From assembly GCA_951406725.2 (NCBI GenBank), contig OX597835.1:32488001-32552000 (forward strand): DNA of 64,000 nt, read 5' to 3'. Positions 891 through 58,661 of the stretch are shown here, piece after piece (positions within the stretch are counted from its first letter, which is position 1; each line of letters begins with the position of its first letter). The translations under genes and the position numbers were made by a program. The notes under the pieces are model-generated. The model did not search any database. It was given only the letters and a program-made list of their open reading frames with translations, and was not told where the DNA came from. The stretch is from Octopus vulgaris. Lineage: Eukaryota.

Positions 891-1454
891 TTGTTTAAGG
901 AGGTGAGTTGGCAGAAGTGTTAGCACACTGGGCAAATGCTCGGCAGCATTTCGTCCATCTTCGCATTCTGAGTTCAAATTTCACTGAGGTCATCTTTGCC
1001 TTTCGTCCTTTTGGGGTTGATAAAATAAACCCCAGTTGATCACTGGGGTCGATGTAATTGACTTACTCCCTTCCATGAAATTGCTGGTCTTGTGCTAAAA
1101 TTTGAAACCGTGCTGTGATTGTTTCACTTGTAGAATCATAGTCTTCCCTAAACCATTTCCTAATCTCCACTGACATGAACAAAACCTAATCAGCCATTTC
1201 CTATCATCTTGTAACTTAGTAGTTCTGTGATAGACAAGTAGAACAAGAATAAGATTTAGAAATAAATACTGGTGTTGATTTGTTCAGCTAAATCCCTCAA
1301 ACTGGTGCCCCAGTTTGGTTACAGTCCAATGACTGAAACATGTCAAACATAAAAGATAAAACATGAGGTAAGCTCCTCTAAAGATGAATGTATATACAGC
1401 CAACATGTGGTAACATCTGAGTATGTATGTCTGTACCTAACCATGTAGTGGTTA

Positions 1455-1862
1455 CTCTTACTCTTTACTCTTTTACTTGTTTCAGTCATTTGACTGCGGC
1501 CATGCTGGAGCACTGCCTTAGTCGAGCAAATCAACCCCGGGACTTATTCTTTGTAAGCCCAGTACTTATTCTATCGGTCTATTTTGCCGAACTGCTAAGT
1601 GACGGAGACGTAAACACACCAGCATCGGTTGTCAAGCAATGCTAGGGGGACAAACACAGACACACAAACATATACACACACACTTATATATATATACATA
1701 TATACGACAGGCTTCTTTCAGTTTCCGTCTGCCAAATCCACTCACAAGGCATTGGTCGGCCCGGGGCTATAGCAGAAGACACTTGCCCAAGATGCCACGC
1801 AGTGGAACTGAACCTGGAACCATGTGGTTGGTTAGCAAGCTACTTACCACACAGCCACTCCT
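1455..1862 (-). mobile_element. SINE family A (about 400 bp, tRNA-like head, internal TA/TG microsatellite). Other copies near 2597-2966(+), 3018-3413(-), 15972-16365(+), 16381-16770(+), 18067-18455(+), 27382-27799(-), 30263-30640(+), 35561-35959(-), 44121-44525(+), 46005-46385(+), 50211-50631(-), 50840-51215(-), plus partials
   Basis: Recurrent head gagtggctgtgtggtaagtagcttgc..ggttcagtccc (A/B-box-like), ccttgggcaagtg core and gactgaaacaagtaaaagag tail. Confidence 0.93.
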
Positions 1863-2206
1863 TATTATTACTGAGGTCGACTTTGCCTTTCATCCTTTTG
1901 GGTGTTGGTAAAACAAGTACCAGTTGACCACTGGTACTTGATATAATTGACCTACACCCTGCCATGAAATTGCTAGCCTTGTGCCAATAGTCGAAACCAA
2001 TATATGTCTTTTGTGCTGTGATTATTTCACTTGTAGAATCATAGTCTTCCCTAAACCATTTCCCAATCGCCACTGACATGAACAAAACCTAATCAGCCAT
2101 TTCCTATCATCTGGTGCATTGCCCCAACCATTGACTAATTGTGCTCTATATCATGTTTCATCTCTAATATTGTTGTTATTGCTGCTGTTGTCTCTCTCTG
2201 TTTCAG

Positions 2207-2270
2207 TATTGCTATAGCGTTAGTCTGTAGCTTTTTACTTGGATTTGGTGATAGCATTTTTAATACTCAG
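2207..2270 (+). CDS. MFSD11: UNC93-like MFS transporter MFSD11, internal exon A (xIAIALVCSFLLGFGDSIFNTQ)
   Basis: Polypyrimidine tract + tttcAG acceptor and CAG|GTAAGA donor; 64 nt. The peptide matches, from memory, the MFSD11 motif CSFLLGLGDSCFNTQ. Confidence 0.88.
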
Positions 2271-4850
2271 GTAAGAACATTCTTTCAGTCATATTTATAA
2301 AAAGTGGGGAGCCTTTATTAACGTATTATTGTTGTTGTCTAGTCCAAGATAATCCTTATGCAGCAGACATTTGAGGCATTCCAGACACGAACATCCTGTT
2401 TTTCATTTAGACATGTATCTGAGACTACATTGATCATTTTCAATAGTGTATAATTTAAACAGGATCTCATATGAGGTTGTCCAGAAAAAAGTCACTGTAC
2501 AAAAAAGTAATACGAAAAATGGCCCCCTTTTTTTTTCCTAATGTTATAAGCAATTAAAGTAATAGAACAAAAGATATTTTAAATCAGTTAGGCATACGAG
2601 TAGCTGTGTGGTAAGTAGCTTGCGTACGAACCACATGGTTCTGAGTTCAGTCCCACTGCATGGCACCTTGGCCAAGTGTCTTCTACTGTAGCTTCGGGCT
2701 GACCAAAGCCTTGTGAGTGGATTTGGTAGACGGAAACTAAAAGAAGCCTGTCGTATATATGTGTGTGTGTCTGTTTGTCCCACCTCCAAATTCGTTTTAC
2801 AACCGAAACTGGTGTGTTTATGTCCCTGTAACTTAGCGGTTCAGCAAAAGAGACCGATAGAATAAGTACTAGGCTTACAAAGAATAAGTCCTGGGATCAG
2901 TTTGCTTGACTAAAGTCGGTGCTCCAGCATGGCCACAGTCAAATGACTGAAATGAGTAAAAGAGTAACGGACAGTACATGACTTATATGCAATTTCTATG
3001 TGATGGTATAACATATATACTCTTTACTCTTTTACTTGTTTCAGTCATTTGACTGCGGCCATGCTGGAGCACCGCCTTTTTTAGTCGAGCAAATCAACCC
3101 CAGGACTTATTCTTTGTAAGCCTAGTACTTATTCTATTGGTCTCTTTTGCTGAACCGCTAAGTAATGGGGATGTAAACACACCAGCATCTGTTGTCAAGC
3201 AATGCTAGGGGGACAAACAGACACACAAACACACACACACATATATATATATATACATGACAGGCTTCTTTCAGTTTCCGTCTACCAAATCCACTCACAA
3301 GGCTTTGGTCGGCCCGAGGCTATTGTAGAAGACACTTGCCCAAGGTGCCACGCAGTGGGACTGAACCCGGAACCGTGTGGTTGGTAAGCTAGCTACTTAC
3401 CACACAGCCACTCCAGTGAAAGAAACAAAAACTTTTATTGAATTTTCTTAAGCAAAGTAAGACAACGAAAACAAAAGAATTAAGTTGGTCATTTATTGAC
3501 AAAAACATGATATATCCAAACTGAAAACATCTTACATCGTCCTTCTCCTTATCATTTAATGTCTGCCTTTCATGTTGGTATGGGTTGGATGGTTTGACAG
3601 AAGCTGGCCAGACGTGAGCCCTGCACCAGCCTTCAGTGTCTGCTTTGGCATTGTGTTTACAGCTGAATGCCCTTCCAAATGCCAACCGCTTCAGAGGGTA
3701 GAGTGGATGCTTTTTACATGGCACCAGCAGGGTCACCAAGCAAGGCAAGGAATTTTTGAGAGGAGAAAGTGATCTTGTGTCAAATGATGAAAGATTTGAG
3801 TGTAACAGAGAGACAGGATCAGAAATATAGTCACCAGTATTAAAAACACTATATGCACGTGTGGAGGCGCAATAGACCAATGGTTAGGGCAGCGGACTCG
3901 CAGTCATACGATCGTGTTTTCGATTCCCAGACCGGGCGTTGTGAGTTTTTATTAAGCGAAAATACCTAAAGCTCCACGAGGCTCCAGTACGGGATGGTGG
4001 CGATCCCTGCTGTACTCTTTTGCTGCAACTTACTCTCATTCTTTCTTCTGTTGGCCTGCTTGCTTAGCCAGTGGGGTGGCGCCATTTGAAGGCTAAAACA
4101 ATGCAAAGCGCATTGTGACCAGCGATGTGTAGCAACATCTGATAGCCTGGTCGTTCACGGTGATCACGGTGATATTAACGTATTGCCACGGTACTAAGAC
4201 GAATATTCCAGCCAACACCACCAAGAAACTCTGCCACTGCCTTACAGTTCTCCCATTGAGCAAAGAATAAGTTAGAAAGCTGCAGATAGCATCAACCAAA
4301 TTTTCTTTGAGGTAGGTTACTAACAACATTCTGCTGGATTATTTTGATCACTGTCACTCACTGACTTTTTTTTTCTGCGACGTTTGGCTGTTCTTTCTAG
4401 CACGCCAGATAACCACTTAGAGCTGGCTCTGTATTACTACGCAGAGATCACCTTCGATTCTGCTATTATGCCTGTGCGAAGGTCACATCTATTTCTTTAA
4501 CTCCAGCAGATATATGATTCTTATCTTATCAAGTCGGAAGGTTCGAACCATGAAGTCAAATCCCGTAAAATTTATATTTAAAACATAGAACGAAACTAAT
4601 TTCTCCAGCAAAAGATTTAATCGAATGGAAAGTAAAGAGAAAAAGAAAAGTAAAACATAGGTGTAAGGGAAATAACTCTTACTAAGTTCAGGGGAGATAA
4701 CCTAAATATTGAATAAACCCCGGTTTGGCGGAATAATTAGTGTCGAACGGACACCTTACAGCATTTGGTTACGATCCTTTACGCTCCGAGCTCAAATCTC
4801 TTCAAGGTTGATTTTTGACATTTATTCTTCCATGCTCAGTAAAAAAAAAA

Positions 4851-5245
4851 GGATCTTTTCGGTTTGAACGGCAGTTTTTTAAAATAATTTCCACGTAACT
4901 AAACACTTTTAAACTTCGTATACTGGTAGAATGTGTTTATAAAACATTCTTTTTCTCTTCGCTTTATTGAGAAAATAGTTTGTAAGATATTTGTTGTTTT
5001 TTTTTCTTCAATTTCTGCAATTTCAACCAATCAATGACATCTATTGAGGTAAAAAAACATTCTGTGCTGTATGAATATATCCCTCGTTTAAGAAACAGAT
5101 TGGGTTTATTTACATTTGTGAAGCAAAAAAGATACCCTTCACCCCACCCCTAACCCTAAAACAGATTGAAATGCAATAGATCGATACTAGGGTCATAATT
5201 ATGGGTGACACCGCTAGAAAAAACTGCCGTTCAAACCGAAAAGAT
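4851..5245. mobile_element. MITE with about 27-bp terminal inverted repeats; partial inverted copy 52343-52735
   Basis: atcttttcggtttgaacggcagttttt ... aaaaactgccgttcaaaccgaaaagat. Confidence 0.85.
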
Positions 5246-6909
5246 AAAAAATAATTTAAAAGAACCAGTCATGTCCTGGATTCATATCGATTCTTTCCTT
5301 TCCAATTTTTTTTTTTGCTATGTAAGAAATCATCATTTGTTTGAACAATTTTTGCAACCTCAATTTGCCTAGGGATGCCATTGATGCGAAACAATAGTTA
5401 AGTACTATTGCTCATTACTTTTATATATGCAAGCACTTTCTCGCCGTTTACTCCTTCCCTGGATCATTATAAAAAAAGTGGGGGATTCAAAGACAGGAGA
5501 CTTCTAATATAGATATTGTTTTTTTAGCTCCAGAAGTGAGATTATTTGCTATTTCTACCTATTCCAGTGTCCACAGAGAGGCTCTCTCGTTGTTCTGTGT
5601 TAGTCAGCCTTGTTTCATATGTTCTTGGTAATATGAAGCTTTCATGTCCATAAGTTCCAAGGTACTCTGGTGATTGGAAAAATTAGGAATGTATATCATA
5701 TGAGACATTTGACGATATGCTGTGCTTGAGAAGACGTGTCAAGCCAAGTGACACCATAGCTGTGGCTGTTGTCAGTGTCACATAAATGGCACCTGTGTCG
5801 GTGATTTGTAAAAAGCACATTTCAAGTGTTGGGCCTCCACAGAGGCATTGTGGCCAATGCTGGTGTTGCGTCACTGGCACACTTGCTGGTGGCACATTAA
5901 AAGCACTGTTTGAGCGCTGGGCCACATGGAAGTAATGACAAATGACCAAGACCTTTAGCAATATGCTGTGCTTGAGTAGAAGACCCTTGAAGCCAAGCGA
6001 AATTATAGTTGTGGCAGATACTGGGGTCACACAACTGGCACCCGTGCCGGTGACACATAAAAGCCCCAGCACACTCTGTAAAGTAGTTTGTTTGTTCCTT
6101 CTCGAGCCATCCCTGCCTCATAGGTCCGGTTTCCTTGGCGCATAGGTTCCCCACCTAGATGGGATGCCAGTCCGTTGCAGGTGAGCTGCAAGATGCAGGA
6201 GGAAAGCGTGAGAGAAAGTTTTGGCGAAAGAGTCAGCGGAAGTTCACCCTTACCTTCTGCCGGAGCTGTGTGGAGCTTAGGTGTTTCGCTCATAAACACA
6301 CACATCACCCAGTCTGAGATTCGAACCCGCAAACCCTCAACTGCGAGTCCGCTGCTCTAACCACTAGACCATGTGCCTCCACATGGCCTATGCGTATGTG
6401 TAGATACATAAACATGTATATCATCATCTATATTTACTGTCCCTTTTCCATGCTGCTATGGGTTGGACATCTTGATTGGAACTGGCCAGGCCAGGGACTA
6501 CACCAGGTTCTATTTTGGCCTGATTTCTACAGTGAGATATAAAAAAGAAAATCATAGTTGCCAAAAATACCCTGCCATGAGATTGAACCTAAGGCTTCAT
6601 GACAATAAAATGAGCATCTCTAACCATCCAGCTCTACCTCTCTTCTTCCATCTGTAGACCAGTAATCCTGTCAGCGTTAGAAGTGGCTCTCTTTTTCTCC
6701 TTTCTTTCTTCCTCTCATGTCATCACTCCTTCTCCTCTATACCCCAATGTTCTTTTCAACTCCCTTGCTTCTCTCTACTCTCCACATCTCTTTTCCTACC
6801 TCTCCTCCTCCACCTCTCTCTGTCTCCTTTTCCTCTCACAACCTCTCTTCCTCTACTCTGTTGCTCCTCTCTAATCTCATCATCTCTCTCTTTCTCTCTT
6901 CCTTTCCAG

Positions 6910-6981
6910 ATATTCGCTATATTAGGAACTGTATTCCCAGAAGATGGAGCTCCTGCTTTTGCATTGTACAAGTTCGCTCAG
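6910..6981 (+). CDS. MFSD11: MFSD11 internal exon B (IFAILGTVFPEDGAPAFALYKFAQ)
   Basis: ctttccAG acceptor and CAG|GTAATT donor; 72 nt, phase 0-0, in frame with exon A. Resembles MFSD11 LLSILGFLYSEDSAPAFAIFKFVQ. Confidence 0.88.
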
Positions 6982-9568: not shown

Positions 9569-9707
9569 TCAATGGCAGCGGCCATCTCCTTCATGTACAG
9601 TATAGCACTTCCACTCCAATGGCAGTTACTCATCATGGTCATCTTAGGCACATTTGCTTCCCTCTCGTTTTTCACACTGGAATGGACTATATTTGGAAGA
9701 CTACCTC
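9569..9707 (+). CDS. MFSD11: MFSD11 exon C, last transmembrane helices (SMAAAISFMYSIALPLQWQLLIMVILGTFASLSFFTLEWTIFGRLP)
   Basis: tctttcAG acceptor, in frame with exon B; resembles MFSD11 SICAAVAFFYS...HWQLLVMVIFGFFGTISFFTVEW. Strong C|GTAAGT donor at 9708 (phase 1); unspliced, the frame stops at 9832. Confidence 0.88.
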
Positions 9708-20928: not shown

Positions 20929-21460
20929 AATGCCCTGATGCAGTAAATAGCAGTGGCTCTCATGACTTCTGATCTTAACTGATTGGAAGTGTTATCATGT
21001 ACATTGATTTGTCTTGTTATAAAAGATGGGGCTACAGCAAATATTCTGCTCAATACCACAGATTTGCTTGCCAGTTGCTTGACCTTAACCAGCAGAGCAT
21101 GTCCCTTAGTGGCTGACGATATGTGCATCTCTGATCGCAAGCAATAGTAGTGGGGGAGTACCATTACCATGTGTTGCAAAGAATTCTTTTAGGTTTGAAT
21201 AAATCACCTCTGGAAACATGGGTGTTTTGTTCAACATCCTTAAACAACTCTTTTTCAAGGACCACATGAGTGGAATGGGCTACTCGACGTGAAGAAAATT
21301 CTAACTGGGCCCCACCTGCAAGGTCATGCACTGTTATCTTGATGGTTGTGATGCATGTACCTGGTGTACCCTTATTGGACGGGTAGTTATGATGGATATA
21401 CTGGGTTTTGTATAGTTTACTCCAGTGTCACTTTGATGGCCTGCACTGCTATCTCACTCA
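20929..21460 (+). mobile_element. Unclassified interspersed element (about 530 bp) flanked by (AAT)n; second copy about 28950-29450(-)
   Basis: Shared ctgatcttaactgattgg, aaagatgggctaca and cacctctggaaacatgg motifs; both copies begin immediately after (AAT)n. Confidence 0.75.
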
Positions 21461-23178: not shown

Positions 23179-23339
23179 TTAAAAAATACCATTGCTACTA
23201 CCACTGCCTCATCCACCACCACCACCACCTTCATCACTACCACCACCACTTCCTCCTCTTCCTCTTCCAACGACCCAGAATATATCCCACTAAGAAAAAT
23301 TGCTTGAAGTACAGCTACCATGTTATTCACCCTTTAAGG
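23179..23339 (+). CDS. Candidate downstream exon D (His-rich), phase 1 to phase 0
   Basis: Weak AAG acceptor after a T-rich tract and strong AGG|GTAAGA donor; 161 nt, open in the frame continuing exon C. Overlaps a (CAC)n low-complexity tract, so it may be coincidental. Confidence 0.2.
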
Positions 23340-24307: not shown

Positions 24308-25953
24308 TTAAAATAATTTTGATTGCTTTCATTTAACATAAAGGAAACATGGTGCCTGTTTAACAGATTTATATAACAAACTAATTATCGCTGTTCACTA
24401 AATGTTTGCTGAGTGCTGTGTATTTGGATAGAATAGAAATAACATGCTTTGACTACTCACATAACACAAGCAGCTGTTACTACTTAGTTATTTCATTGTG
24501 TTTAATAATAATGTTGATGATTTGGTTAACTTCAAAATGTAATTTGAAAATTCAGTCTTGTCATGTGAATTGCTGTTCTTCCCTCTCTATCTTTAAACTT
24601 TCTTATTGATGTTACTGTTGATGTGTAAGGTCTCATTGGAATTGATCCAGTGAATTTATCACCAAAAATCTCCTTGTCATGCTATTCCTTTTTTTTTTGT
24701 TCTACAGTGTATCTTAGTCTCAGGTAATTTCTGTGTGAGATACACAAGATAGTGATCTTCTGCTAGTATAGTCAATGTGCTTCAGTTCCTTATAACACTT
24801 ATCCTTGTGCTTTTGAGGGTCTTTATTTTAATTTTGGTTTGAGGTATTCTTGGGCCAAGCCTCTCCTCATATCCTCTTATGAACTGACCCACCCACTCTT
24901 CTCAACCCAATGTCCCTGTTCTCGTTTATGCTCACCTTCTACCTTGCAAGTACACCATGTCACTTCATCACTACTGCCTTTATCTCTCTTTCCAGCAATC
25001 CCCACCCACTCTTATATAATCTGCGGTAGCTGTGTATCTTTTCTATAACAAGATACCTGTTCCTGTCCCCCTGACATAACTCTAACCTCTTAACACCTGA
25101 CATAAAGAACATCTATATCCCTCTACTATACTCCTACTCAGTTGTGGAGGCCTTTATAGTTTGTTTGTCTTGTGAATTACTTGGCAAACCCATTAGTGTT
25201 GGTGCCACAGAATAATAGCCACTGAGTGTATTCTATGAAGTGATTGGTATTAGGAAAGGCATTGAGCTATGGAAAACATGTCAAAAGAAGACATTGGCAC
25301 TCAATGCAATCCTTCAGCTCATTGGATCCTGTGAAGCTGACAAAATTATGCCAGTATGGAAAACAGACATTCTAAGATGATAATGATGAGGAAATATATA
25401 ATTATTGAAGACAAGAAGTGCACAACCAGAAAAACACTTGCACAAACACTTCTAAATGTCTGTGAGTGTATCTGTTCTCATTTTCTCTCATCTCACATAT
25501 CTGTGTATTTGTTGCTGTTAAAATCACAGACATACCTTTTAGCTGAAATAAATTTAATTAAAAAGTTGCTCTTAAATAAGTTAATTATTCCATCATTTAC
25601 TAACGAGATCTCCCTATCATCCCCTCATCTTTATTTCCCCCCGACTAAAGTGTTGTTTTAGGAAATCTCACTTCTCAAAAATCCAATTGCTTTGTGAAAT
25701 ATACACATGCACACATACACATACCTTTGTTTCCATACTTACACACACTGTCTCTTTCTCTCTCTCACTCACACAGACACATATGCTAACATATATACAT
25801 ATAAATTCTCCATTCATAAAAATGCTTGCACACAGACAGACATATATATATAGATCCATAGACATATCCATGCTTGTATACACACACATATACTTATATA
25901 TTTCTCTCTATATATATGTGTGTGTGTGTGTATATATACACATATATATATAC

Positions 25954-27876: not shown

Positions 27877-28437
27877 CACACACACACATACAGACTTATA
27901 CAAATATACATTTTGATCATGTGTGAGAGTGTTTATGTGTGTATGAAATATATGTGAGTTAACTCCTTTCCTAAGAAGCTTATTTATGTCTACATCCATA
28001 GAGATTTGTGTTTCTGTGTCTTTTTTCTTTCTTTTTGCGTGTGTTTGTGTTTCTTTTTGTCTGTTATCTGTTATGCAAAAATTTCGATAGATACATTAGT
28101 CTCCTTGTTATCAAAATCAAACGTGTTTTGGCACCGAAATCATTGTTAGATATAAATTAGGATTTGACTTTTGATTAATGACCCTTACTTCTATATAAGT
28201 GTGTGTGTATGTATGTTTGTATATATGTGTATGTATGCATATATATATGTTTACACCTGTGTATGTTTGGTTGTGTATACGAACATACACATACAGAGAG
28301 ATTGTATTGAAAATGGCTCTACATTGAACCACTTTCAGTTTTGAATTGTGCTAAACACATAATTCTGATGAAAACAAAACCATTATATGGAAGTCTGAGA
28401 GTTATTCCTGGAATTTAGTGTTAACTTTTTTGCTTAG

Positions 28438-28518
28438 AACAACAACATGAAGAACACGTTAAGTGGCCATAACATGATTAATGTGTTGTCACTTCAACAT
28501 GAGCAGTGTGGCAGGAAG
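28438..28518 (+). CDS. Candidate 81-nt exon E (NNNMKNTLSGHNMINVLSLQHEQCGRK in phase 0)
   Basis: ttttttgcttAG acceptor and AAG|GTAAGA donor; length divisible by 3; identical inverted copy at 44652-44732. Confidence 0.35.
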
Positions 28519-31198
28519 GTAAGAATGGTCTAGGCATTGATTAAATACCTTTCATTATTTAAACCTGTGTTTTACATTCTATGTTCTTTTCTTACTCACT
28601 TATAATTTTTTTTAGAGGTTGAAGTAAACCACTTCTAGCAGAGATATATTTGTCTCTTGGGTAGGGGTTGTTTTTTCTTTTTGTTTCACTTAAAGCCAGT
28701 TACCCATTTTCCATAATGTCTAAGTGACAGAGATCACAATCGTGCCAATGAATGGGACACCAACCCATTGCAGGGTTTAATCTTTTGGGATTTAAATCAG
28801 CTTTATATGGCCCAAGTAGTCTGCCTGTTTTATACTCAAACTGACTAGAAGTGGCCTGTCTCACCAACCTAACAATATCATTCCAAAACTTAACAGTTAC
28901 CTCATCAAAATTTCAAAGCAAGAAGATAACCTTGATATGTTTCAACCAGTATAGGCCCAGGCCATGTCTAATACCCATCATGACAGCCTGTCTAATAAGG
29001 GTACATCACAACTACGTGTGCAATATGATGATCAAAAATTGCGATAAACATCACATGACTTTGTAGGTGGAAACTCAGTTAGAATTTTACTCTAGGTCAA
29101 GTAGCCCATCTTGCTCAGAAAGTCCCTGAATAAGGGTCGTTTAAAGATGTTGAATGAAACATCCATGTTTCCAGAGGTGAATTATTCAAACCCCAAAGAA
29201 TCCCTCTCAATACATGACTATGACGCTTCCCCACTACTCCTGCTTGTGGGCAGAGATGCACATATCGTCAGCCTCTAATGGACATACTCATTTGGTTATG
29301 GTCAAACAACTGACAAGCAAATCTATGGTATGGTGCAGAATATTTGTTGTAGCCCATCTTTTACACCAAGACAAAATATGTACATAATAACACCCCCAAT
29401 CAGTTAAGATCAGAAGCCTTGAAAGTCAGTGCCTGATATTGCATCAGGTCTTTTATTATTATTATTATTATTATCATCATTATACTCTTCTTTCAATTTT
29501 ATTTCCATTTCTTGCTGAGTGTCTACCCAACACCTAGGGCAAAGAAACTCCCTGTATACATTGGTAGGCCATTAAACTAAAGACACCAGATTGTTCATTT
29601 ACAAAGTCACATGACAGAAAAAGGGGGAAGAAACACAAAAAGAAAGAAAGGAAAAATCTATCTATAAATGGCATGATGTGTGTGTGTACGTGATTGTAAT
29701 TTATGCACGTCCACAAATTAGCATGCATGTTGCTCCAATTTTAGGAGGACATTCGTCAACACCCTATCTGGGTTTTGTCAACTTATTTTTTTCCCAAGGC
29801 ACCCACGGATAGCGGTAAAAATCTATTTTCAGCAATAGCTTTTAGCAGTAAAAATCTATTTTCAGCCATAGCTTTTACCTATTTTGAAGGTTGTTAACAT
29901 GAGTTAAGTCCCTTCTAGCCATAGCCAAGCGAAAGTGTGTGTGTGAGGGAGAGAGAGAAGTTGTGTGTTGATGTATGTGTGTGAGGGAGAGAGAGTGTTT
30001 TGCAACGTCTAACAAAAATAGTAAAGAAAATGCATGTGTAAGAAAGAGTGGGAGATAGTTTGAGAGTGTCTAACAAGAAAAAAACACAAGGTAAAGAAAA
30101 GTGGAAGAGAGGCAGAGAGTTTCACAGCATCTAAACAAAAAAAAAGGGAGAGACAAAGTGAGAGAGAGGGAGAGTAAGTGACGATGTTCATAAAAAATAA
30201 AATGTAAAATGTTTTGTTTTTTCTTAAACAAGCTGTGTGGAAGCCATCGTGTGTATGTGTGAGGAGTGGCTGTGTCGTAAGTAGCTTGCTAACCAACCAC
30301 ATGGTTCCGGGTTCAGTCCCACTGCGTGGCATCTTGGGCAAGTGTCTTCTGCTATAGCCCCGGGCCGACCAATGCCTTGGTAGACGGAAACTGAAAGAAG
30401 CCTGTCATATATATGTATGTGTATGTGTTTGTCTGTCTGTGTTTGTACCCCTAGCATTGCTTGACAACCGATGCTGGTGTGTTTACGTCCCCGTCACTTA
30501 GCGGTTCGGCAAAAGAGACCGATAGAATAAGTACTGGGTTTACAAAGAATAAGTCCCGGGGTCGAGTTGCTCGACTAAAGGCGGTAGGCGGTGCTCCAGC
30601 ATGGCTGCAGTCAAATGACTGAAACATGTAAAAGAGTAAGAGATATAGTGTTCAAATTCAGAATGTTTTTGAAAGATACTATATTTTATAATCATAGTAT
30701 ATATACTTTCTCACACAACAATTACAATATATTTATTTTAAATCGTTCCTCTTTCTCCTCCCTCTCTCTCACAGAAACATTACTTTGGGTGCGAAAGAGT
30801 TTTGTTTTTCTTTTACGCCAAGTAAAAAAGTGTTCTGTTGAGAATCCATTTACTTAACAACAAAGAGGTAGGTAACAGTTTGTCAGTGAATTACACAATA
30901 TAAATGGGTACAATTTCTGAAGCTTCCACCACACCCCACTCCGTTTCATGGACCACAAAAAGGGTTTTGTAGGCCAGAGTAGTTGCTTCCACACTAAAAA
31001 ACAATGTTTTTTTCTTTGTGAAAATCGTGTGAGTGTTAATCTACAAATTTAACAACATTTTTTCCATTCATTTCTGTTTATGAACATGTATGCATGCACA
31101 AAACATGCAATAGGTGTACGTACATGTGTGTTCGTATGTGTTGATCGTATATATTTATATTATATATATATATTATATAATATATATATTATATAATA

Positions 31199-31399: not shown

Positions 31400-32680
31400 A
31401 CATGTGATGTACCAGTTATGATAATCTTTTGCAGTTCCTGAAAGGATGGTAAGCCAGGGATTATCCTCAAATAATTTTCAGTTCCCTTTTTGATCATTCC
31501 AATTACTCCTACAATTACTGGTATTGTAACCATCTTGAGATACCACATCATTTTTCATTTTAATCATCAAATCTTTATATTTTCTAAGCATATCAAATTC
31601 TTTCGCTGTGATATTATGATCACAAGGTATGCTCTTGTCAATCAATAAGCTGACTTTATTATTTTTTGTCCTTGACAACAATGTCTGGTTTATTAGCTTT
31701 GATTATTATTTTCATATACACTCAACAGTTGGAAAAAGAAAAGAATCCTAACATCGGGTTACAGCAAGTTGCCTTAGATGCCAAGAACCCTCCTACTGGG
31801 TTACATCAAGTAACCTTAGATGCCAAGAACCCACCTTAGTATCCTACCTGTCCCTAATAACACAGTTTTCTGGAGCTGTACTAAACTGGGTTATATGCCT
31901 ATTTCCTCTAGCTATCTGTTCAGATCTTTAAGGATAGTTCCCAATGCACCTATACCTACTGGGATTTATTTTTACCTGCACTTTCCCTAGTCTCTGTAAT
32001 TCAATATCTAGGTCCTTGTTCTTTGCTATTTTTTTTTTTTATATTTCTCATACAAACGTTTTCATCATTTGGGACTGTAAAGTCAATTATCTGGCACTTT
32101 CTATTCTCTTTATCTACTACTACTACTGCTACTAAATCAGGCCTTCTAGCTTCTATCACTCTGTCAGTCTGAATTAGTTACGCACTGGGGTCGATATAAT
32201 CGACTTAATCCCTTTGTCTGTCCTTGTTTGTCCCCTCTGTGGTAGTAAAGAAAAAAAAAATATTATTAATATTATTATTATTATTTCATATAGGTACAAC
32301 AGAATAAACTGCTAACATCAGGATACAGGTAACCTTAGATGCCAAGAACCCACCTAAGTATTCTAGCTGTCCCTAATAACACTGTTTTCTGGAACTGCAC
32401 TAAACTAGATTTTATGCCTATTTCCTCTATCCATCTGTTCAAATTTTTAGGGTTAGTTCCTAATGCATTTATAACTACAGGGGTACATTTTGCTCGCACT
32501 TTCCATTGTCTCTGTAAATCAATGGCTAGGTTCTGGTACATTGACTTTCTCATCATTTAGGACTGTAAAGTCAATTATCTGGCACTTTCTAATCTCTTTA
32601 TCTACTACTATGACACTTTCTGTTCTCTTTATCTACTACTACTAAATCAGGCCTTCTAGCTTCTATTACTGTCAGTCTGA
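31400..32680 (-). mobile_element. Cluster of degraded R4/Dong-like RLE 3' fragments, partly tandemly duplicated
   Basis: ORFs 31478-31681 (LLID..KYKDL) and 32335-32556 (PVVINALG..QKTVLLGTARILR); ccttagatgccaagaaccc occurs three times. Confidence 0.75.
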
Positions 32681-32733
32681 ATTATTATTATTATTACCAT
32701 TATTATTTACTTTCTCTTTTATTTATTTTGCAG

Positions 32734-32898
32734 TATTATAAAATCTTAAAACAAAATGATGATAATAGTGAAGCTGGTGATAGAGGTGACCATGGTAATG
32801 AAAACGATGACATTGATGATGTTGAAGATGATGATGATGAAGATGACATTTATGATGTAAACCAACAAGACCAACTAATTAATGGACATGAAAATTAA
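32734..32898 (+). CDS. Candidate terminal exon F with acidic tail (YYKILKQNDDNSEAGDRGDHGNENDDIDDVEDDDDEDDIYDVNQQDQLINGHEN*)
   Basis: Strong acceptor (tttctcttttatttattttgcAG), protein-like open phase-0 frame to TAA, AATAAA at 33161. Linkage to MFSD11 is not proven. Confidence 0.4.
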   Translation, partial: YYKILKQNDDNSEAGDRGDHGNENDDIDDVEDDDDEDDIYDVNQQDQLINGHEN

Positions 32899-39400: not shown

Positions 39401-40930
39401 GAGGATGAAGTCTATTTGGCTAGCGGAGTCTCCTGACTGATAGGTTATAAGGTGGCAGTCAGGCTTCTTAAAGTTAATGTTGCAGATTAAAAGGTTACAT
39501 GCATCACAGAATTCCAGTAGTCTAGTTCCCTCATCATTTCTGGTGCCAATACCATGGCCACCGTGTACCCCAGTGAAGATACCCATTCCCGCCCAACATG
39601 CCCATTAAAATCTCCACCCACAAAGTTGAGGTCCTTGCCACTAGTCTTTGAAGTAGCCTGTAGAAGGGTATCATAAAAGTGGTCCTTCTGATCATTTGGT
39701 AGTCCCGCTTGTGGGGCATAGGCGGAGATAATCGTAGCTGTGCCACTCTGTAGGACCAACCTGAGCTTAAGCACTCTATCGCAAACCCTGACAACCTCTA
39801 TGACCTTATCCACCCATTTCTCCGCAAGGAAAATGCCTACACCTTCCATGTTACCTTGCCAGAAAAGTTTGTACCTAAGTGCCTTGCCTGTGAGGACCCT
39901 AGCTGAAGAACCTCTCCATCTTACCTCTTGTATGCAGCATACATCAACCTGTCTTCTCTCAAGCATCTCTACAATCTCACTAGACCTACCTTTCAATGTA
40001 CCAACATTGACAGTGCCAACTCTGAAAACTGGGAAGGAGATGTGGGGGGGGAGGGGAGCAATTCAGCGCCTGAAAAGAAGAGGGTTGTTGTGGTGGTGAT
40101 CGTTTTCGTGGCATTTTTCTTCTGATCTCTCTTCCGACCTGACAACATTCAAGCATTTGGGCATGTTAAGATTGTGGACCCTGCCGTGGGCAGGAGCTGG
40201 TGTTAGCAGCATTGTAGGCATAAGCATTAAGGTCATTGATGATGTAGATGTGGCAGAAAGGCTGAAATTCTTGGTGTTAGTAGATATTCTAAGCAAGCAT
40301 TATCGACACTGAGTAACGTAATTAGGCAGCGTAGCAGAAGCATGGATATTCTAGAGTTGGGTTGGTGGGGTTCCAGCTGAGAAAGGTTCCACCAGTGAGA
40401 AGAGAGGGAGAGAAAGTGGGGGGGGGTGCAGGTAATATAGGGAAGCACCAGTGGGGAGGGTTGGGGTAAGGAGGAACGATGACAGGTAGGGTTGGTGCAG
40501 GTTCGTAGGAATTAAAACGTAGGATATCACGAGTGGGGGAGGGGACTGGAAGGAGATAGCCAGTTGAGGCAGTGACAGATTTCAAAACAGGAGGAAACGT
40601 AAGATAAGTGGGACGGTTGATGAGCTGCGGCGCTAGCTGCTTGTCTTGGTGGGGGGAGGGGTAATACACAGTGAAAGCATGTGAGGAGGAGGGATAGACA
40701 CACGTAATGGTGGTGGGGGAGGGCATATCCGGTGTAGATGGTGTGAACAGTGTTCTCCGGTAGTGGTGGGGGTGGGAAAGGGCGGGCGCACCGCGAATGG
40801 CGAAGATCGAATTAAAGGATTGAAGAAAGTACCATAGAGAAACGAAGGAATGGCGATGTTAAGGGTAGCATAGAGAAACAAACGAATTAACTTTTATACC
40901 GGGGGGGGGGGGGGGGTAAAAGGATTAAAT
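36475..40930 (-). mobile_element. Near full-length RTE-clade LINE (APE + RT + PHD-like finger), frameshifted; (GAT)n tail; inserted in (TA)n
   Basis: APE N-terminus VGTVNVGTL..CIQEVRW (39487-40030) and GDFNGHVG; RT with KAPGPSG, DLEKAFD, GVHQGS and YADD (37042-39315); (CAT)n at 36475-36496. The 5' limit beyond about 40060 is uncertain. Confidence 0.93.
37042..40030 (-). pseudogene. RTE APE-RT polyprotein split over three ORFs (39487-39996, 39230-39586, 37042-39315)
   Basis: At least two frameshifts. A short deletion (HARQSVS|IRCGVQ) is visible against the sister fragment at about 12430-12490. Confidence 0.9.
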
Positions 40931-43969: not shown

Positions 43970-45240
43970 TGGCTTAAACCTTGCAATGAATTAGTGTCCT
44001 ATTCATCAACAATGTTGTAATCTTGGTGACTTATACCTCATGGAAAACTAGGTAACTGGCCTCATAAGTCATAGCAGTTAAGGGAAACAAAAAAACAAAT
44101 CCAATGAGAAATACAGCTACAGGCGCAGGAGTGGATGTGTGGTAAGTAGCTTGCTAACCAACCACATGGTTCCGGGTTCAGTCCCACTGCATGGCATCTT
44201 GGGCAAATGTCTTCTGCCAAAGCCTCGGGCCGACCAAAGCCTTGTGAGTGGATTTGGTAGACAGAAACTGGAAGAAGCCCATCGTATATATGTATGTATA
44301 AATTTATGTATGTATATGTTTGTGTGTCTGTGTTTGTCCCCCTAGCGTTGCTTGACAACTGGTGCTGGTGTGTTTACGTCCCCGTCACTTAGCGGTTCGG
44401 CAAAAGAGACCGATAGAAGTAAGTACTGCGCTTACAAAGAATAAGTCCCGGGGTCGATTTGCTCGACCAAAGGCGGTGCTCCAGCATGGCCACAATCAAA
44501 TGACTGAAACAAGTAAAAGAGAGAGAGAGTACACCATAGCTAGTATTGGTTTATTTCAATCCCTAAAGGAAAATATTAGAAAAAATTTAGACTGTAAAGA
44601 TTCAGGCTTAAATAACGAAAGGTATTTAATCAATGCCGAGACCATTCTTACCTTCCTGCCACACTGCTCATGTTGAAGTGACAACACATTAATCATGTTA
44701 TGGCCACTTAACGTGTTCTTCATGTTGTTGTTCTAAGCAAAAAAGTTAACATTGAATTCCAGGAATAACTCTCAGACTTACAAATAATGGTTTTATTTTT
44801 ATCCCTGTCATACTTTTAGCACATTTCAAAATTGAAAGTGGCTCATTGTAGAGTTTGCTTTCTATATAATCTCTCCTCATCCCTCTTTCTGTATGTGTAC
44901 ACATGTGCTTGTGTGTATACACACACACGCACATATGTGCACACATATATAAATACACACCTGCATACATGCACACATACACACCTGCATATACATACAT
45001 ATATATACACACACACATACATACACACCTGCATACATATATATATATACACACACATACATACACACCTGCATATACATATATATATATACATATACAC
45101 ACACATTCACACATAGTCATACACACACACACATATATACATAAGGGCCATAAGTTAAATCCTAATTTATATCTAACAATGATTTCAGTGCCAAATCACG
45201 TTTGACTTTGATAATGAAGAGACTAATGCATTTATCTAAA
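43970..45240 (-). repeat. Inverted-duplication segment vs about 28090-28790 (interrupted by the SINE at 44121-44525)
   Basis: Exact core around exon E with progressively diverged flanks. Confidence 0.85.
44652..44732 (-). other. Inverted identical copy of candidate exon E
   Basis: Reverse complement identical to 28438-28518, including both splice sites. Confidence 0.75.
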
Positions 45241-45279
45241 CTCGTGTAACACTCATACGCACAAAGATACACACACACA

Positions 45280-45331
<52 letters not shown>

Positions 45332-47509: not shown

Positions 47510-48445
47510 GTGTGTGTGTAAGAGTGTGCTTTGAAACATAGGTATGTGCATGAGTGCATGTATGTCAGTATGTATATGTTAGTAGTGTGTGCATGTGTAT
47601 ATTCCATCAAGTGATCAGATTCTTGGGAAGAAACAAGTGAGATTTCCTATAACAACACTTTTGTAGGGGAGATATAAAGATGAGAAGACAATAGGGAGAT
47701 CTCGTTAGTAAATGATGGAATAATTAACTTATTTAAGAGCAACGTTTTAATTAAATTTATTTCAGCTAAAAGGTATGTCTGTGATTTTAACAGCAACAAA
47801 TACACAGATATGTGAGATGAGAGAAAATGAGAACAGATACACTCACAGACATTTAGAAGTGTTTGTGCAAGTGTTTTTCTGGTTGTGCACTTCTTGTCTT
47901 CAATAATTATATATTTCCTCATCATTATCATCTTAGAATGTCTGTTTTCCATACTGGCATAATTTTGTCAGCTTCACAGGATCCAATGAGCTGAAGGATT
48001 GTATTGAGTGCCAATGTTTTCTTTTGACATGTTTTCCATAGCTCAATGCCTTTCCTAATACCAATCACTTCATAGAATACACTCAGTGGCTATTATTCTG
48101 TGGCACCAACACTAATGGGTTTGCCAAGTAATTCACAAGACAAACAAATTATAAAGGCCTCCACAACTGAGTAGAAATACATTAGAGGGATATAGATGTT
48201 CTTTATATCAGGTGTTGAGAGGTTAGAGTAATGTCAGGGGGACAGGAACAGGTATCTTGCTATAGCTAAGATACACATCTACCTCAGATTATATAAGAGT
48301 GGGTGGGGATTGCTGGAAAGAGAGGTAAAGGCAGTAATGATGAAGTGATATGGTGGACTTGCAAGGTAGAAAAGGTGAGCATAAATGAGAACTGAGACAT
48401 GGGTTTGAAAAGAGTAGGTGGGTTAGTTCATAAGAGGATATGAAG
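47510..48445 (-). repeat. Inverted-duplication segment, mostly near-identical to about 24860-25760
   Basis: ORF-track peptides 25356..25661(+) and 47647..47952(-) are almost identical; the DNA match extends on both sides. Confidence 0.9.
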
Positions 48446-48910
48446 AGAGTAACCGATGGTTCAAATGGAGGTGGAAGCAGACAAAGTTGTGGTTGATGGT
48501 AAATATAAGTTTTGGCATGGAAGAAGGTGGAAGGAATAGGAATGCAGAAGGGAGGAGGTGGTAAGTGGTAGTGAAGAGCAACAGCATAAAAAAACGGTAG
48601 ATAGATGAGAAGTAGGGGTGAGTGTTGGGAGGTAGTTAAGTACAAAGACAGGGATGGAAGTTAGAGGTACATAGGGGTGGATATAGCGTAGGTGAAAAAA
48701 AGGTGTAGGGAACCATTAATAGCAGATCTGAAAGGGTGTTAAAAATGATAGCAGATATGTGAGTGTGTTAAGGGTGATGTATAACACTCATACCATGTAA
48801 CACAAGGGCAAGGGTGGAGGTAACCAGTGCCACAAAAAAGAGGAGTAAACAGCTGGAAATTAAGTGGGAAAGGATGATATCAAGAACAACAACAATTATA
48901 ATAACGGTAA

Positions 48911-53076: not shown

Positions 53077-53149
53077 CTGAAAAAACTTGCACAGGTGAAA
53101 AAATTGTAGCTATGTCTTCTGTGAACATGGTTCATACAAGAGTTAATAC
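53077..53149 (-). pseudogene. MFSD11: Inverted, disrupted paralog of MFSD11 exon B (VLTLV*TMFTEDIATIFS/LCKFFQ)
   Basis: tttccAG acceptor and CAG|GTAAT donor retained; 73 nt (+1 frameshift); GGA>TGA at 53132-53134; 48/72 positions identical to exon B by manual alignment. Confidence 0.8.
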
Positions 53150-53154
53150 CTGGA

Positions 53155-53620
53155 AATGAAGAGAGAAAGAGAGATGGTGAAAGTAGAGAGGAGTGAGGGG
53201 GAAGTGAGAAAGAGAAGTGGTGAGAGTTGAGAGAAGTGGGGGGGGGGTAGAGGGGAAGAGAAATGGTGAGAGTAGAGAGAAGGGGGGAGGCAGAGAGAAA
53301 GAGAAATGGTGAGAGTTGAGAGAAGTGAGGGGGGGCAGAGAGAAAGAGAAATGGTGAGAGTAGAGAGGAGTGAGGGAGGCAGAGAGAAAGGGAGATGGTG
53401 AGAATAGAGAGAAGTGAGGATTGGGGGCAGAGAGGTGGTAAAAGTAGAGAGGGTTGACAGAGAGATGATGAGAGTACAAAGGAGTGAGAGAGGAGAGAGG
53501 AAGAGAGATGGTGAGAGTAGAGAAGAGCAAGTGAGGGGAGAGTAAGAAAGGTAGTGAGAGGAGTGGGAAGTGATGGAGTAGAGAGGAAGGGAGATAGTGA
53601 GAGTAGAGAAGAGCAAGGGA
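53155..53620. repeat. Purine-rich degenerate tandem repeat (expanded polypyrimidine tract of the pseudo-exon)
   Basis: Repeated atggtgagagtagagaggagtgagg units; homologous to the shorter CT-rich tract at 6690-6900. Confidence 0.8.
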
Positions 53621-56148
53621 GCTGAGAAGACCAATGGGGTAGAGGGTAGAGTTGGAGTAAAGACATTAGAGGGAGAAGGAAAAGAGAAGAGGAGACTCAT
53701 TTTGAAAGCCAATAGAATTACTGGTTTAAAGATGGAAGGATAGAGGTTTGGCTGGATGGTTAAAAGCATTTTTTTTTATTGTCATGAGGCTGTGGGTTCA
53801 ATCCCATGCATAGCATTTTTGGCAAGTATATTATTTTTTTTATATCCCAGGTGGATTCAGGACTTGTAATTAAAACTAACTAAAAAGAAATGGTTTGGAA
53901 TTCTGTTGGATGGATTACTCTTACTCTTTTACTTGTTTCAGTCATTTGACTGCAGCCATGCTGGAGCACTGCCTTTAGTCGAGCAAATCGACCCCGGGAC
54001 TTATTCTTTGTAAGCCCAGTACTTATTCTATCGGTCTCTTTTGCCGAACTGCCAAGTCACAGGGATGTAAACACACCAGCATTGGTTGTTAAACAATGTT
54101 GGGGGGACAAACACAGACACAAACATATACACACACGTACATATATATACATATATATGATGGGCTTCTTTCAGTTTTATATTTTAGTACATTTTCAACT
54201 TTTTCTCAGTATTTCCTCCCCCCACCCACACACACGCATATCATGTGATCATGTGATCAACCATTGACCAGCCTATTGAATGTTGTTATACATCGCTGGT
54301 CACAATGCATTTTGCATCGTTTTAGTTTTTGAAAGATGTCACTCTGCTGGCTTGGTATACAGGCCAAGATATGTGTGTGAGTGGTGCATTGTTGTACTCA
54401 AGAAGGTCTGCCCGCTACAGCAGAATCGAGAGCCTAAAACCGAGGTGCCATGGAAAAAGTGGTGCCAGTGCCGTGTAAAAAGCACCCAGTACACTCTGTA
54501 AACTGCTTGACATTGGGAAGGGCATCCAGCTGTAGAAACCAGGTCAAAACAGACTATGGACTCTTGGTGTGTCCCCTGGTCTTGCCAGTTCCTATCAAGC
54601 CATCAAACCCATGACAGCATGGAAAACAGATGTTAAATATTGATGATGAGGATGATGGTGATGATGATGATGGTGATGGTGATGGTGATGGTGATGGTGA
54701 TATGTGATGGGCTTCTTGCAAATGCTTGCTACCAAATCCACTTACGAGACTTCGATCAGCCTGACACTACAGGAAAAAGCACTTGCCCAAGGTGCTTGGC
54801 AGTGGAATGAACCTGAGAATGTACGGCTGGAAAGCAAGCTTGTATCTAATTACATGAGATTAATACACTAAGTAGACAATTTCAGACGGCTACAGAATCG
54901 TAGATATGCCATATTAATGCCTCGTTTCTTTGAAATAATATATATATATATATATTTAAGATGCAGAGGAAGAGGAAATCATCTTAGTAGTTGAGGAAGT
55001 GCTTACATATATAAATGTAATGAACAATAGTATTAACTATTGCGTTTTGTGCCAATGCCGTCCCTAGGCAAATGGAGGTTGGAAAGATTGTTGAAACAAA
55101 AAATAAACAAAAATAAAAATGATTTCTTACAGAAATATAAACAAGGCGAAAATTTTATGAAGGCACAGTCGATGTTATGAATCCTCGGACCTGTCTGGTG
55201 CTTTGTTTTACCGAGCATGGCAGAATAAAAGTGAAGATCAACCTCAGAAGGATTTGAACCCAGACGTAAAGGATCGTAACCAACTTCTTGTAAAGTTTTC
55301 ATTCTGCCAAAGCTATATTCGATATTTACATTGTCTCCCCTGAACTGTGTAAGAGTTATTTCCCTGAGAAATATATATATATATATATTTTTTTTTTTAA
55401 TGTTGGAGCTGGAACAGAAGAAATGAGTTGTGATATTTTGCTTTGGCTGTATTCTGGTAAAAATTTCCCTTTAAAAAATTTCAGGGCCACTCGCATCACC
55501 GCAACAAATCCCATCAAGTATGAGGGATTGTATAAGTTTATTGTTCGTGCAATAAGCTACCAAATTATTACATTCTCTCGATTTCCCGTGATTCAGAAAA
55601 TTATGTATATTCCAGGAGTCCTTGTTCCTTCTTCAGCACCACATCTGACCTTTTAACCATTCATGAACACATTGCTTAAAGAGCCGCCAAATATAGTGTG
55701 TAACACTTTATATATTAAACAGTTCCTCACCAGGGTTAATAGCTAACATACAACCCACGCAGGTGCATGTAGATATATGAACAAAAGTCCATCAACCATT
55801 GCCATTTATCATTCAGTCGTGTATATATGTGAGGCTGGCATTAAAGACATTTAAAGTTATCACCTTGTTTCATGTATTTCTTTATATCGTGTTCCAGTCA
55901 AATGATAATACAGCTTTCTGAGTAGAGTCACACGAGATGGAATACACCTCACCATCTATAAAACCATACACTACTTGAAATGAATGTAGTTTAAGGTACA
56001 TAACATGTCTAAATGAAAGACAGGATGTCCATATCTGGAATGCCTCGGAGGTCTGCTGTATAAGGATTATCTTGGACTAGACAACAACAATAATACGTTA
56101 ATAAAGGCTCCCCACTTTTTATAAATATGACTGAAAGAATGTTCTTAC

Positions 56149-56212
56149 CTGAGTATTAAAAATGCTATCACCAAATCCAAGTAAAAAGCTACAGACTAAC
56201 GCTACAGCAATA
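56149..56212 (-). pseudogene. MFSD11: Inverted paralog of MFSD11 exon A (xIAVALVCSFLLGFGDSIFNTQ)
   Basis: Reverse complement is 63/64 identical to 2207-2270 with intact splice sites; called pseudogenic because its next exon is disrupted. Confidence 0.8.
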
Positions 56213-56547
56213 CTGAAAGAGAGAGAGACAACAGCAGCAATAACAATAATATTAGAGATGAAACATGATATACAGCACAATTAGTCAATGGTTGGGGCAA
56301 TGCACCAGATGATAGGGAATGGTTGATTAGGTTTTGTTCATGTCAGTGGAGATTGGGAAATGGTTTAGGAAAGACTATGATTCTATAAGTGAAATAATCA
56401 CAGCACGAAAGACATATATTGGTTTCGACTATTGGCACAAGGCTAGCAGTTTCATGGCAGGGTGTAGGTCAATTATATCAAGTACCAGTGGTCAACTGGT
56501 ACTTATTTTATCAACACCCAAAAGGATGAAAGGCAAAGTCGACCTCA

Positions 56548-56607
<60 letters not shown>

Positions 56608-56623
56608 GTAATAATAATAATAA

Positions 56624-57496
56624 GGTTTTATCATAGCAGCTCAGGGTTTATCATAGCAGCTCAAGATCAATGCTTACCAACAAGGAACTACCAGGCCAAC
56701 ATATCAAAGAATGGCAGTACCCCAACATGTTGTGTATGTCAACAACAAAATGAAACCATTGATCATGTTGTCTCCAAGTGCAGTCTTCTAGTGCCTACAG
56801 AGTATCTCAACAGGCATGATAGAGCTGCACAATATATTCATTGGGTAATCTGCAAAAACCTGGATTTGCCCCATGAAAAAAACTGGTGGGAACACAAACC
56901 ACCTCCAGTGTTTGAAAATGACCACATCTCACCCCTCTGGAACTTCACCATTCAAACTGACAGAAAGATAGATGCAAATAGGCCAGACATCATATTGAAA
57001 GACTTCAAACAAAGAACATGCCCTCTCATTGATATGACTGTCCCAATCGATATAAATGTATCTGTCAAGACCTACCAAAAACTGAGCAAATATAAAGATC
57101 TTGAAATAGAAATCAGCAAAATGTGGAACCTGAAGACTAAAACAATACCTGTTGTCATAGGTGCCCTGGGAATGATAGCAAAAGGGGCTGATCGCTACCT
57201 AACTCAGATACCAGGAAACCCCAAAATGGCAGAAATTCAAAAGATAGTGCTCATGGGAACTGCTCATATCCTACGCAAAATACTTTCTATGTAATCTCAA
57301 GTTTTAAAACAAACATAATTACCGTATGTTTTTTTTTTTTAGACATTCACTAGAACAACACTAAAAAATAAAACCAAATATATGGCACACTAGGCATAAC
57401 AACAACATGAACTTCTAACCTGTTGTCTCTTGAGGTCTCTGAGTGAGACTTGGAGCCAACTTGTACAAATATAAAGCAAAAGTCAAACATAGAATG
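56624..57496 (+). mobile_element. 5'-truncated R4/Dong-like non-LTR retrotransposon (CCHC knuckle + restriction-like endonuclease) in (AAT)n
   Basis: CCVCQQQNETIDHVVSKC knuckle, RHD, NRPDI..IDMTVP..KYKDL and IPVVIGALG motifs (ORF 56791-57294); (AAT)n on both sides. Confidence 0.88.
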
Positions 57497-57869
57497 ATAA
57501 TAATAATAATAACCACTACATGGTAAGGTACAGACATACATACTCAGATGTTACCACATGTTGGTTGTATATACATTCATCTTTAGAGGAGCTTACCTCA
57601 TGTTTTATCTTTTATGTTTGTCATGTTTCAGTCATTGGACTGTGACCAAACAGGGGCACCAACATGAGGGATTTAGCTGAACAAATCAACACCAGTATTT
57701 ATTTCTAAATCTTGTTCTTGTTCTACTTGTCTATCACAGAACCACTAAGTTACAGGGCTGTAAACAAAGCAACACTGTTTGTTGTCAAGGGGTGATGAAG
57801 GGACAAAAACAAAGACACACACACACAAAGACACACACACACACACACGCATGCATGCACACATGTGCA

Positions 57870-57910
<41 letters not shown>

Positions 57911-58661
57911 CACATCTTGGTGATCATGTTCGTGAGAAGTCTTGCGTGTGCCCGGATGCTATATATATATATGTATGACGTGTTTAGAGGAGAAAATGAA
58001 ATTTAAAAAGTCTCACAAATTTTTCACAAAAGCCATTTAAATATTTCAAAAGAATATTAATGGTTTAGCTTTGTAATTCTTGTGAGTTAGTGAATTATTG
58101 ACAAATTTAAGAGTAAATAATTTACGCTTTAAGTAAACCATTATTGTTTAATAAGTGTTGATATATTGAAGGAAGAAAACAATTGGAATCTTTTTGTTAT
58201 ATCTTTTTAATTTACAGCAAGTTTATAGATTTGATTGTGAAATATATTTTACTATTAAACATGGATACATTGACTGAAAATTATATTTTATTTTCTGTTT
58301 TGTTTGCAGAACTAATCTAATTTCTCAACACAATTAGAAAGATATACAAAGAAGTTGAAAAGGAAAGAAAAGAGGATAAAAGTTCATCATATACCTAAGT
58401 GAAACAAACTTAAGTAACCGGAAACTATTTGTCTCTAAAATGTTTGGAATTTTCAGTGTCCATTAATTATTTGGTACTCCAACTTCAATTTCTAAGTGAA
58501 AGAGTGTGAATTAAGCTCTGAATTTTTTTTTTTTTTTTTTTTTTTTGTCGTTGCATGGATACAGATGAGGTTTCAAATATATCTTTTAAGATAAAAAAAC
58601 CAGCTTTTGTAATTCTGCTGAGTATTCTCTTCCTCCACTGAACACTGATATTATCCCAATA

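Follow-up and report, generated by a model that had tools for sequence, protein, structure and literature searches.

Gene conversion is itself a well-known process, and the octopus MFSD11 locus described here is a probable further case of it. In mammalian Y palindromes, the arms are nearly identical throughout and hold intact gene copies in both. The sequence-only reading of this DNA had likened the locus to such a palindrome. The likeness lies in inverted arms that appear to exchange sequence by conversion, but it fails beyond that point: only ~4.4 kb of the 70-kb left span aligns (4417 of 70358 bases, ~6%), mostly at ~83% identity, and the right arm carries no intact gene copy.

IDS/IDS2 is one pair of a gene and an inverted pseudogene. 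SORD/SORD2P is another, and 411 human pairs lie in opposite orientation, according to the part of PMC12632684 that deals with them. The octopus locus shares with SORD/SORD2P a functional gene beside an inverted, disabled and unprocessed copy, where a crossover would swap good exons for broken ones. Pairs of that type, as described in the same part of PMC12632684, are highly homologous and are studied for inversions, whereas in octopus only small islands have stayed alike and no inversion was observed.

Mosaic concerted evolution of neighbouring paralogs is described for BMP8A/B (inverted), DDX19A/B and TUBG1/2 in the sections of PMC2720389 on these genes. They resemble the octopus copies in being old neighbouring duplicates, one pair inverted, with peaks of exon and intron identity in diverged sequence. 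In those pairs, however, both copies are intact and species-wise grouping is demonstrated (same sections), while in octopus one copy is a fragment and the tracts measure 0.1-0.8 kb. Escape from concerted evolution follows a known course, with conversion lasting until substitutions or transposon insertions break pairing, and opsin exon 5 forms a divergence peak (PMC3924837, in its account of escape). The doubly inserted TTA site of the octopus tract would correspond to such a pairing break, and the single-exon peak resembles exon B'; the opsin peak, by contrast, separates two working genes amid homogenised introns, whereas the octopus exon is broken and its introns are not homogenised (PMC3924837, same account). 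Among the results listed for literature on MFSD11 in octopus or on octopus gene conversion, nothing concerned this locus. The octopus locus is compact, and a single genome suffices to read the age, the edges and partly the direction of exchange between a gene and a pseudogene, transposon remnants serving as markers.

The MFSD11 gene and its inverted partial copy

We analysed a 64-kb window of the 2.8-Gb genome, widened by 100 kb per side to ~264 kb; all coordinates are relative to the window (Table 1). The left arm holds the 3' half of an intact UNC-93-family gene on the plus strand, as seen from PF05978 profile matches, and its exons match MFSD11-named proteins of Octopus sinensis, O. bimaculoides and Argonauta in tblastn. 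The PF05978 domain and the full exon set of the named proteins are present, beginning with exon 1 at -40198, upstream of the window start. All exons, including the terminal ones inside the inner islands, are ordered on the plus strand as in the O. sinensis and O. bimaculoides proteins. Taken by itself, exon A matches PF05978 positions 301-320 (E 0.00037, below cut-off).

The 3' region of the gene (9707-32900) shows at least four alternative C-termini, at about 10.0, 23.2, 32.3 and 32.7 kb, and the acidic tail at 32.7 kb is common to O. bimaculoides MFSD11. Directly behind exon 13 stands a 1.4-kb minisatellite of ~24-bp units (10029-11456), and an old tandem duplication (31807-32684, 75%) surrounds the short terminal exon of isoform X4. 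In one annotated isoform (P0008, 351 aa), exon A is left out and the frame ends five codons further on; exon A may be a regulated cassette.

Table 1 Features of the two arms, in window coordinates.
Feature	Position	Strand	Note
SINE remnant B(a)	983..1109 (element ~897-1109)	+	likely original repeat copy before exon A
U1, additional 100 bp repeating the unique sequence ahead of exon A, confined to the left arm	1110..1209	+	alignment
Segment Y, young tract starting mid old SINE	1210..1454	+	235/245 to 57754-57510
Left-only young SINE at TTA repeat inside tract	1455..1862		absent from right arm
Young exon A tract: SINE remnant B(b), U2, the exon and its 3' flank	1865..2451	+	matched to 56554-55966
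MFSD11 exon 11 (exon A), functional gene	2207..2270	+	named MFSD11 proteins align in tblastn
Three old alignable intron blocks	4666-4848, 5336-5442, 6533-6901 (within 4666..6901)	+	78-87% gap-free
MFSD11 exon 12 (exon B), functional gene	6910..6981	+	match to named MFSD11 proteins
MFSD11 exon 13	9569..9707	+	right-arm counterpart not found
MFSD11 alternative 3' exon (O. sinensis isoforms X1, X3)	23179..23339	+	protein match
Island 2, left copy	24861..25715	+	vs 48449-47586; stepped identity 92% / 99% / 82%
Island 3, left copy	28036..28780	+	98% core 28418-28561 in 77-85% flanks
MFSD11 terminal coding exon, acidic tail (O. sinensis X1/X2, O. bimaculoides X1)	32734..32895	+	protein match
Island 3, right copy	43974..45283	-	alignment to left copy
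Island 2, right copy	47586..48880	-	old transposon extends ~430 bp past shared part to 48880
Exon B'	53077..53149	-	73 bp; stop and frameshift, splice sites intact
Right copy of young tract, incl. exon A' 56212-56149 (open frame, intact splice sites)	55966..56557	-	alignment to left
Right-only LINE 3' fragment at same TAA repeat	56558..57503	+	230-aa frame
Segment Y' and uncut old SINE containing it	57510..57914	-	SINE runs on past 57754
Exon 1'	66181-66077	-	88/105; ATG, open frame, donor intact

The right arm follows the left in colinear order on the minus strand, from matches to the sequence upstream of MFSD11 (68.9-68.4 kb, about 260 bp aligned at 66%) through exon 1', the exon A tract, the three intron blocks, exon B' and island 2 to island 3, which ends at 43974; ~70 kb of left span corresponds to ~25 kb on the right. 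It retains exons 1, 11 (A) and 12 (B) and two patches of 3' intron only. The remaining 10 of the 13 coding exons (2-10 and 13) were not found, none rising above shuffled controls in nucleotide alignment or above 7.8 bits with a four-protein profile. Introns and flanks are kept, as in an unprocessed (duplicated) pseudogene. Disabling lesions are the stop and frameshift in exon B' together with the missing exons, and the earlier description of the paralog as dead holds in this sense, at the coding level. The right arm thus carries part of MFSD11 as an old duplicate in inverted orientation, broken at the coding level.

Exon 1' carries nine replacement and eight silent differences (pN 0.11 vs pS 0.40). 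Its residue 19 is F as in Argonauta, where both Octopus proteins have L; this one site suggests that the duplication may be older than the Octopus/Argonauta split. Among the best candidates scored, exon A, exon B, island 2, island 3 and exon 1 as queries each gave one close second genomic copy, always the right arm; hits on two other contigs match only the intronic repeat behind exon A and were set aside. Further matches within the window, direct or inverted, at 12393-12985, 20899-21399 and 4851-5210 belong to repeats outside the colinear chain. The frame of exon 1' as a protein query had no match among proteins of 71-2000 residues, which is weak evidence, and Rfam gave no match in the window at gathering score. 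A near-complete LINE on the minus strand (36700-40100) sits near the centre of the inner islands; its 759-aa frame reads as a reverse transcriptase (RVT_1 E 5e-30), and the element also gives a PHD-like match.

Stepped identity between the arms

Exon A (2207-2270, plus) and exon A' (56212-56149, minus) agree at 63/64 positions and exon B and B' (53149-53077) at 48/72, with a TGA at codon 6 and one extra base, just as the sequence-only reading had counted them. It had also described near-identical intron for about 1 kb: the near-identity stands, but the length is ~0.75 kb, split by a different transposon in each arm, and lies mostly upstream of exon A, outside 53077..56212. Around exon A (1865..2451), the matched pieces are 330/342 upstream, 63/64 in the exon, and 98/100 followed by 68/77 downstream. 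The intron between A and B proved as heavily diverged as reported, alignable in three blocks only (138/162, 92/106 and 175/224), which pair with 55365-55202, 55100-54993 and 53849-53490 in the right arm.

The near-identical islands that had been placed at 24.9-25.6 and 28.4-28.5 kb were recovered as well, with cores of 455/460 and 141/144. In island 2 the core stands between steps of 273/298 and 80/97. Its 5' 530 bp on the left are an old transposon cut at 24861, whose extent is given by alignment to a third copy (L027, 618/883). Island 3 aligns over 28036-28639 vs 45283-44539. Both islands grade into old homology, which flanks the young core on both sides in island 3 and on the 3' side in island 2.

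Exon-centring of the young tracts is seen for exon A only. Island 3 contains a candidate 81-bp exon (28438-28518) with a strong donor and a weak acceptor, its splice score being reached by 2.2% of 4000 random windows; in island 2 no convincing exon was found, 65% of random windows scoring equally. The antisense strand of the island 2 core (25400-25500 minus, 47810-47910 plus) has a short hydrophobic frame and a better splice pair, whose score of 13.5 is within the random range. The islands are not exons of the annotated O. sinensis isoforms; the alternative exons of these lie at 23.2, 32.3 and 32.7 kb.

Counted without gaps, the arms differ at 25/751 positions in the exon A tract, 25/298 in outer island 2, 5/460 in its core and 3/144 in the core of island 3. 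The background is 174/999 in the pooled old blocks (~17%, biased low by being drawn from alignable blocks) and 24/72 in exon B, and synonymous differences in exons 1 and B reach ~40% (14.5 of 36.7 sites). The exon A tract differs from outer island 2 (p=0.001) and from the island 2 core (p=0.013), and the latter two from each other (p=8e-7), while the core of island 3 shows no difference from the A tract (p=0.60) or the island 2 core (p=0.40); tract borders were placed by eye, which makes these Fisher p-values optimistic. When the 3169 aligned columns with their 383 differences were permuted 20000 times, no permutation gave identical runs as long as the observed 257 bp (25307-25563, island 2), 145 bp (2215-2359, exon A tract) or 130 bp, and seven equalled the 113-bp run of island 3 (p<=0.0004).

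There are thus at least three young age classes, at ~9%, ~4% and 1-2% divergence, within sequence at ~17% or more, and the tracts occupy homologous colinear positions among the old blocks of an older duplication. A single duplication is excluded, as had been argued from the sequence. Uniform identity on proper alignment, which had been named as evidence against conversion, was not seen; divergence steps from 1-4% to ~17%. Purifying selection alone is ruled out, as repeat-derived neutral DNA is homogenised too: because the tracts hold transposon remnants, 96-99% alike between the arms and at most 70-80% to other copies, selection does not explain their likeness.

The proposal of patchy gene conversion between the gene and its inverted broken paralog is supported by the run test and the comparison of tracts with background. 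We consider it highly probable that the right arm is an inverted partial duplicate of MFSD11 whose patches likely arose through repeated non-allelic gene conversion, probably in both directions. Alternatively, small duplications or staggered-break inversions in succession, with an inverted copy left behind each time, could have built up nested repeats that differ in age with no conversion involved, or the middle segment could be flipped by crossovers within the tracts. The three tracts are indeed nested around the locus centre, segment Y is in effect an insertion-duplication, and inversions between a gene and its inverted pseudogene are recurrent in humans in the part of PMC12632684 on such pairs. 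The order of the MFSD11 exons on the plus strand, as in O. sinensis and O. bimaculoides, speaks against this account, as do the young cores embedded in old homology, which is not expected of fresh duplications, and we judge it very unlikely.

An artefact of collapsed or mixed haplotypes would also give near-identical patches. Polishing with mis-mapped reads could produce full identity such as that of the 257-bp and 113-bp runs, and read support for islands 2 and 3 consists of three short pieces in run X8, one with letters of the left-arm flank. However, the A tract is 3-4% different and carries arm-specific insertions, and both arm types occur across a tract edge in independent runs: X2, X3 and X8 all contain contigs specific to the right arm, the 3' edge of the tract is crossed by contigs of left type in X3 and X8 and by one of right type in X2, and contig 32 of X8 spans the 5' tract edge at 57754. 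Right-arm contigs show 11 differences in 2214 bases (0.5%) in X2 (organism B) and 15/1066 (1.4%) in X8 (organism D; contig 26, in a repeat, left out), divergences younger than most tracts, in contigs that collapse variants. In X3 one contig over exon A' (56097-56226) has no difference and a depth of 93 vs ~40 per arm-specific contig, a hint of two identical copies, contig depth being no copy number. Since both arms occur in independent runs, assembly error is unlikely, and we give this explanation hardly any weight. The locus would also mislead duplication dating, as well as short-read mapping at exon A.

Probable direction of exchange and a proposed course of events

The locus began with an inverted duplication of ~70 kb, from the promoter region to the 3' intron, now ~25 kb on the right, and within its background of ~17% or more stand tracts at ~9%, 4% and 1-2%. 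The functional exon A would have overwritten exon A'. At a neutral K of 0.19-0.5, exon A' should carry 6.7-15.4 differences and it carries one. That it has kept the octopus peptide despite an expectation of 7-15 changes leads us to propose that it was likely copied from the gene to the pseudogene, the simplest way for a disabled copy to retain a functional peptide. The differing residue is V in exon A', as in MFSD11 of O. sinensis and O. bimaculoides, and I in the functional copy of this assembly, which is also found in a protein labelled Octopus vulgaris. Transfer of the exon from pseudogene to gene is possible.

A flow in the other direction is suggested by the upstream part of the tract. 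The old SINE around Y is cut at 1210 on the left and continues beyond 57754 on the right, where other genomic copies of the Y' SINE (up to 78%) align over query positions 47-361, across the tract edge. With the SINE whole in the right arm but truncated in the left arm where the tract begins, Y would have come from right to left. An older copy of the junction between SINE B and unique sequence stands upstream in the left arm, just before the cut at 1210; its SINE part is 17% diverged like the arm background, yet is the closest of 91 copies to the SINE B of the tract. Among the 91 aligned SINE copies in 264 kb (self included), the best non-self matches of B(a) are 56409-56560 (83.5%) and 1859-2010 (82.7%), followed by 80.3% with a median of 73.6%, and B(a) is likely the left arm's original copy of the repeat before exon A. 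U1 differs at three positions from 2013-2112 and at six from 56406-56307; the duplicate 983-1212 as a whole cannot be the old copy, its SINE part alone being old and the unique 100 bp young.

From these alignments, ~0.5 kb of intron 10 was likely copied from the pseudogene to the gene as a templated insertion. At ~4% divergence ago, a break just upstream of functional exon A would have been repaired by one-sided invasion of the right arm, copying Y, SINE B and U into intron 10, and rejoining without homology would have left U twice. One-sided invasion with end-joining is a known mechanism of repair. A left-arm deletion would likewise leave a repeat cut at the tract edge, and a template-switch deletion within the left arm could give the arrangement U1-Y-U2. 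Island 2 has the same polarity as Y, its element extending further in the right arm and being cut at 24861 in the left; this too is expected from a left deletion, and a deletion may be all that island 2 shows.

The earlier claim that the functional gene exchanges exon sequence with its paralog is supported as regards exchange, while the direction of the exon points from gene to pseudogene and the flow into the gene is intronic. The locus suggests that a working gene can go on receiving sequence from a decayed neighbour.

The left-only SINE differs from the consensus of 15 copies at 14/341 positions, six of them common to at least four copies, which places it at ~2-4%. The right-only LINE fragment gives a weak zf-RVT match (E 2.8e-05, below cut-off) and its nearest genomic copies are 97% identical, a distance of 3%. 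Because these ages are no older than the tract, the two elements would have entered the same TTA repeat after the conversion event. Some LINE clades prefer TAA repeats. Patches still alike would stay usable as templates and keep converting while the remainder escaped, and selection would remove any event that brought the broken exon B' into the gene or caused an inversion of the arms at exon A.

Exon B' and possible selection on the right copy

Exon B' (24/72 differences; pN 0.32, pS 0.39) is more diverged than the adjacent intron blocks (p=0.0015) and exceeds the divergence that the age taken from the introns would allow (p=5e-5 at K 0.265), while its splice score remains 27.2 vs 28.6 for exon B. 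Only a K near 0.5 marginally fits both exon 1' (p 0.03) and exon B' (p 0.065). Either the alignable blocks, being older conversions or survivors, understate the age of the duplication, or exon B' underwent past positive selection. No indel was listed in the X2 or X3 contigs over its stop and frameshift region.

Selection could also have acted on the right arm as a transcribed paralog, a regulatory RNA or short peptide, holding exon A' and island 3 and driving B' apart with conversion as its vehicle. Several observations are consistent with this: exon 1' keeps its ATG, open frame and donor at pN 0.11 vs pS 0.40, B' has strong splice sites and a pN of 0.32 above that of exon 1' (p=0.002), the 113-bp identical run of island 3 just spans the candidate exon, sequence upstream of exon 1 was duplicated too, and one contig of X12, a run guessed to be RNA, exactly matches the right-specific intron at 53329-53622. 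On the other hand, the joins 1'-A', 1'-B' and A'-B' all stop within eight codons, no other exon exceeds 7.8 bits with the four-protein profile, island 2 yields no convincing exon, its score being equalled by 65% of random windows, X12 may contain DNA, and with 17 and 24 differences neither exon 1' nor B' alone clearly departs from neutral decay. We therefore regard it as unlikely. The runs guessed to be RNA (X19, X15, X12) gave no contig on island 3', and X12 none on exon A', which has no bearing on expression.

A distinctly unlikely variant would make the right copy a spliced, selected partner in antisense orientation, made up of exons 1', A' and B' and the island exon, that shapes splicing of its parent, with B' driven apart and exon A and the two 3' islands held identical. 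If true, the inverted copy has already rewritten MFSD11 intron 10 beside an exon that an isoform skips, and the route would possibly be the formation of long RNA duplexes, RNA editing being abundant in this animal.

Several right-arm variants at 53238-53637 in X3 (labelled organism A) are common to X2 (organism B), and X3 depth is about half over 52.9-53.9 kb. Young inverted repeats also stand outside the window at 88596-92242 (234 bp, 100%) and 129193-129614 (178 bp, 98%), probably as transposon ends.
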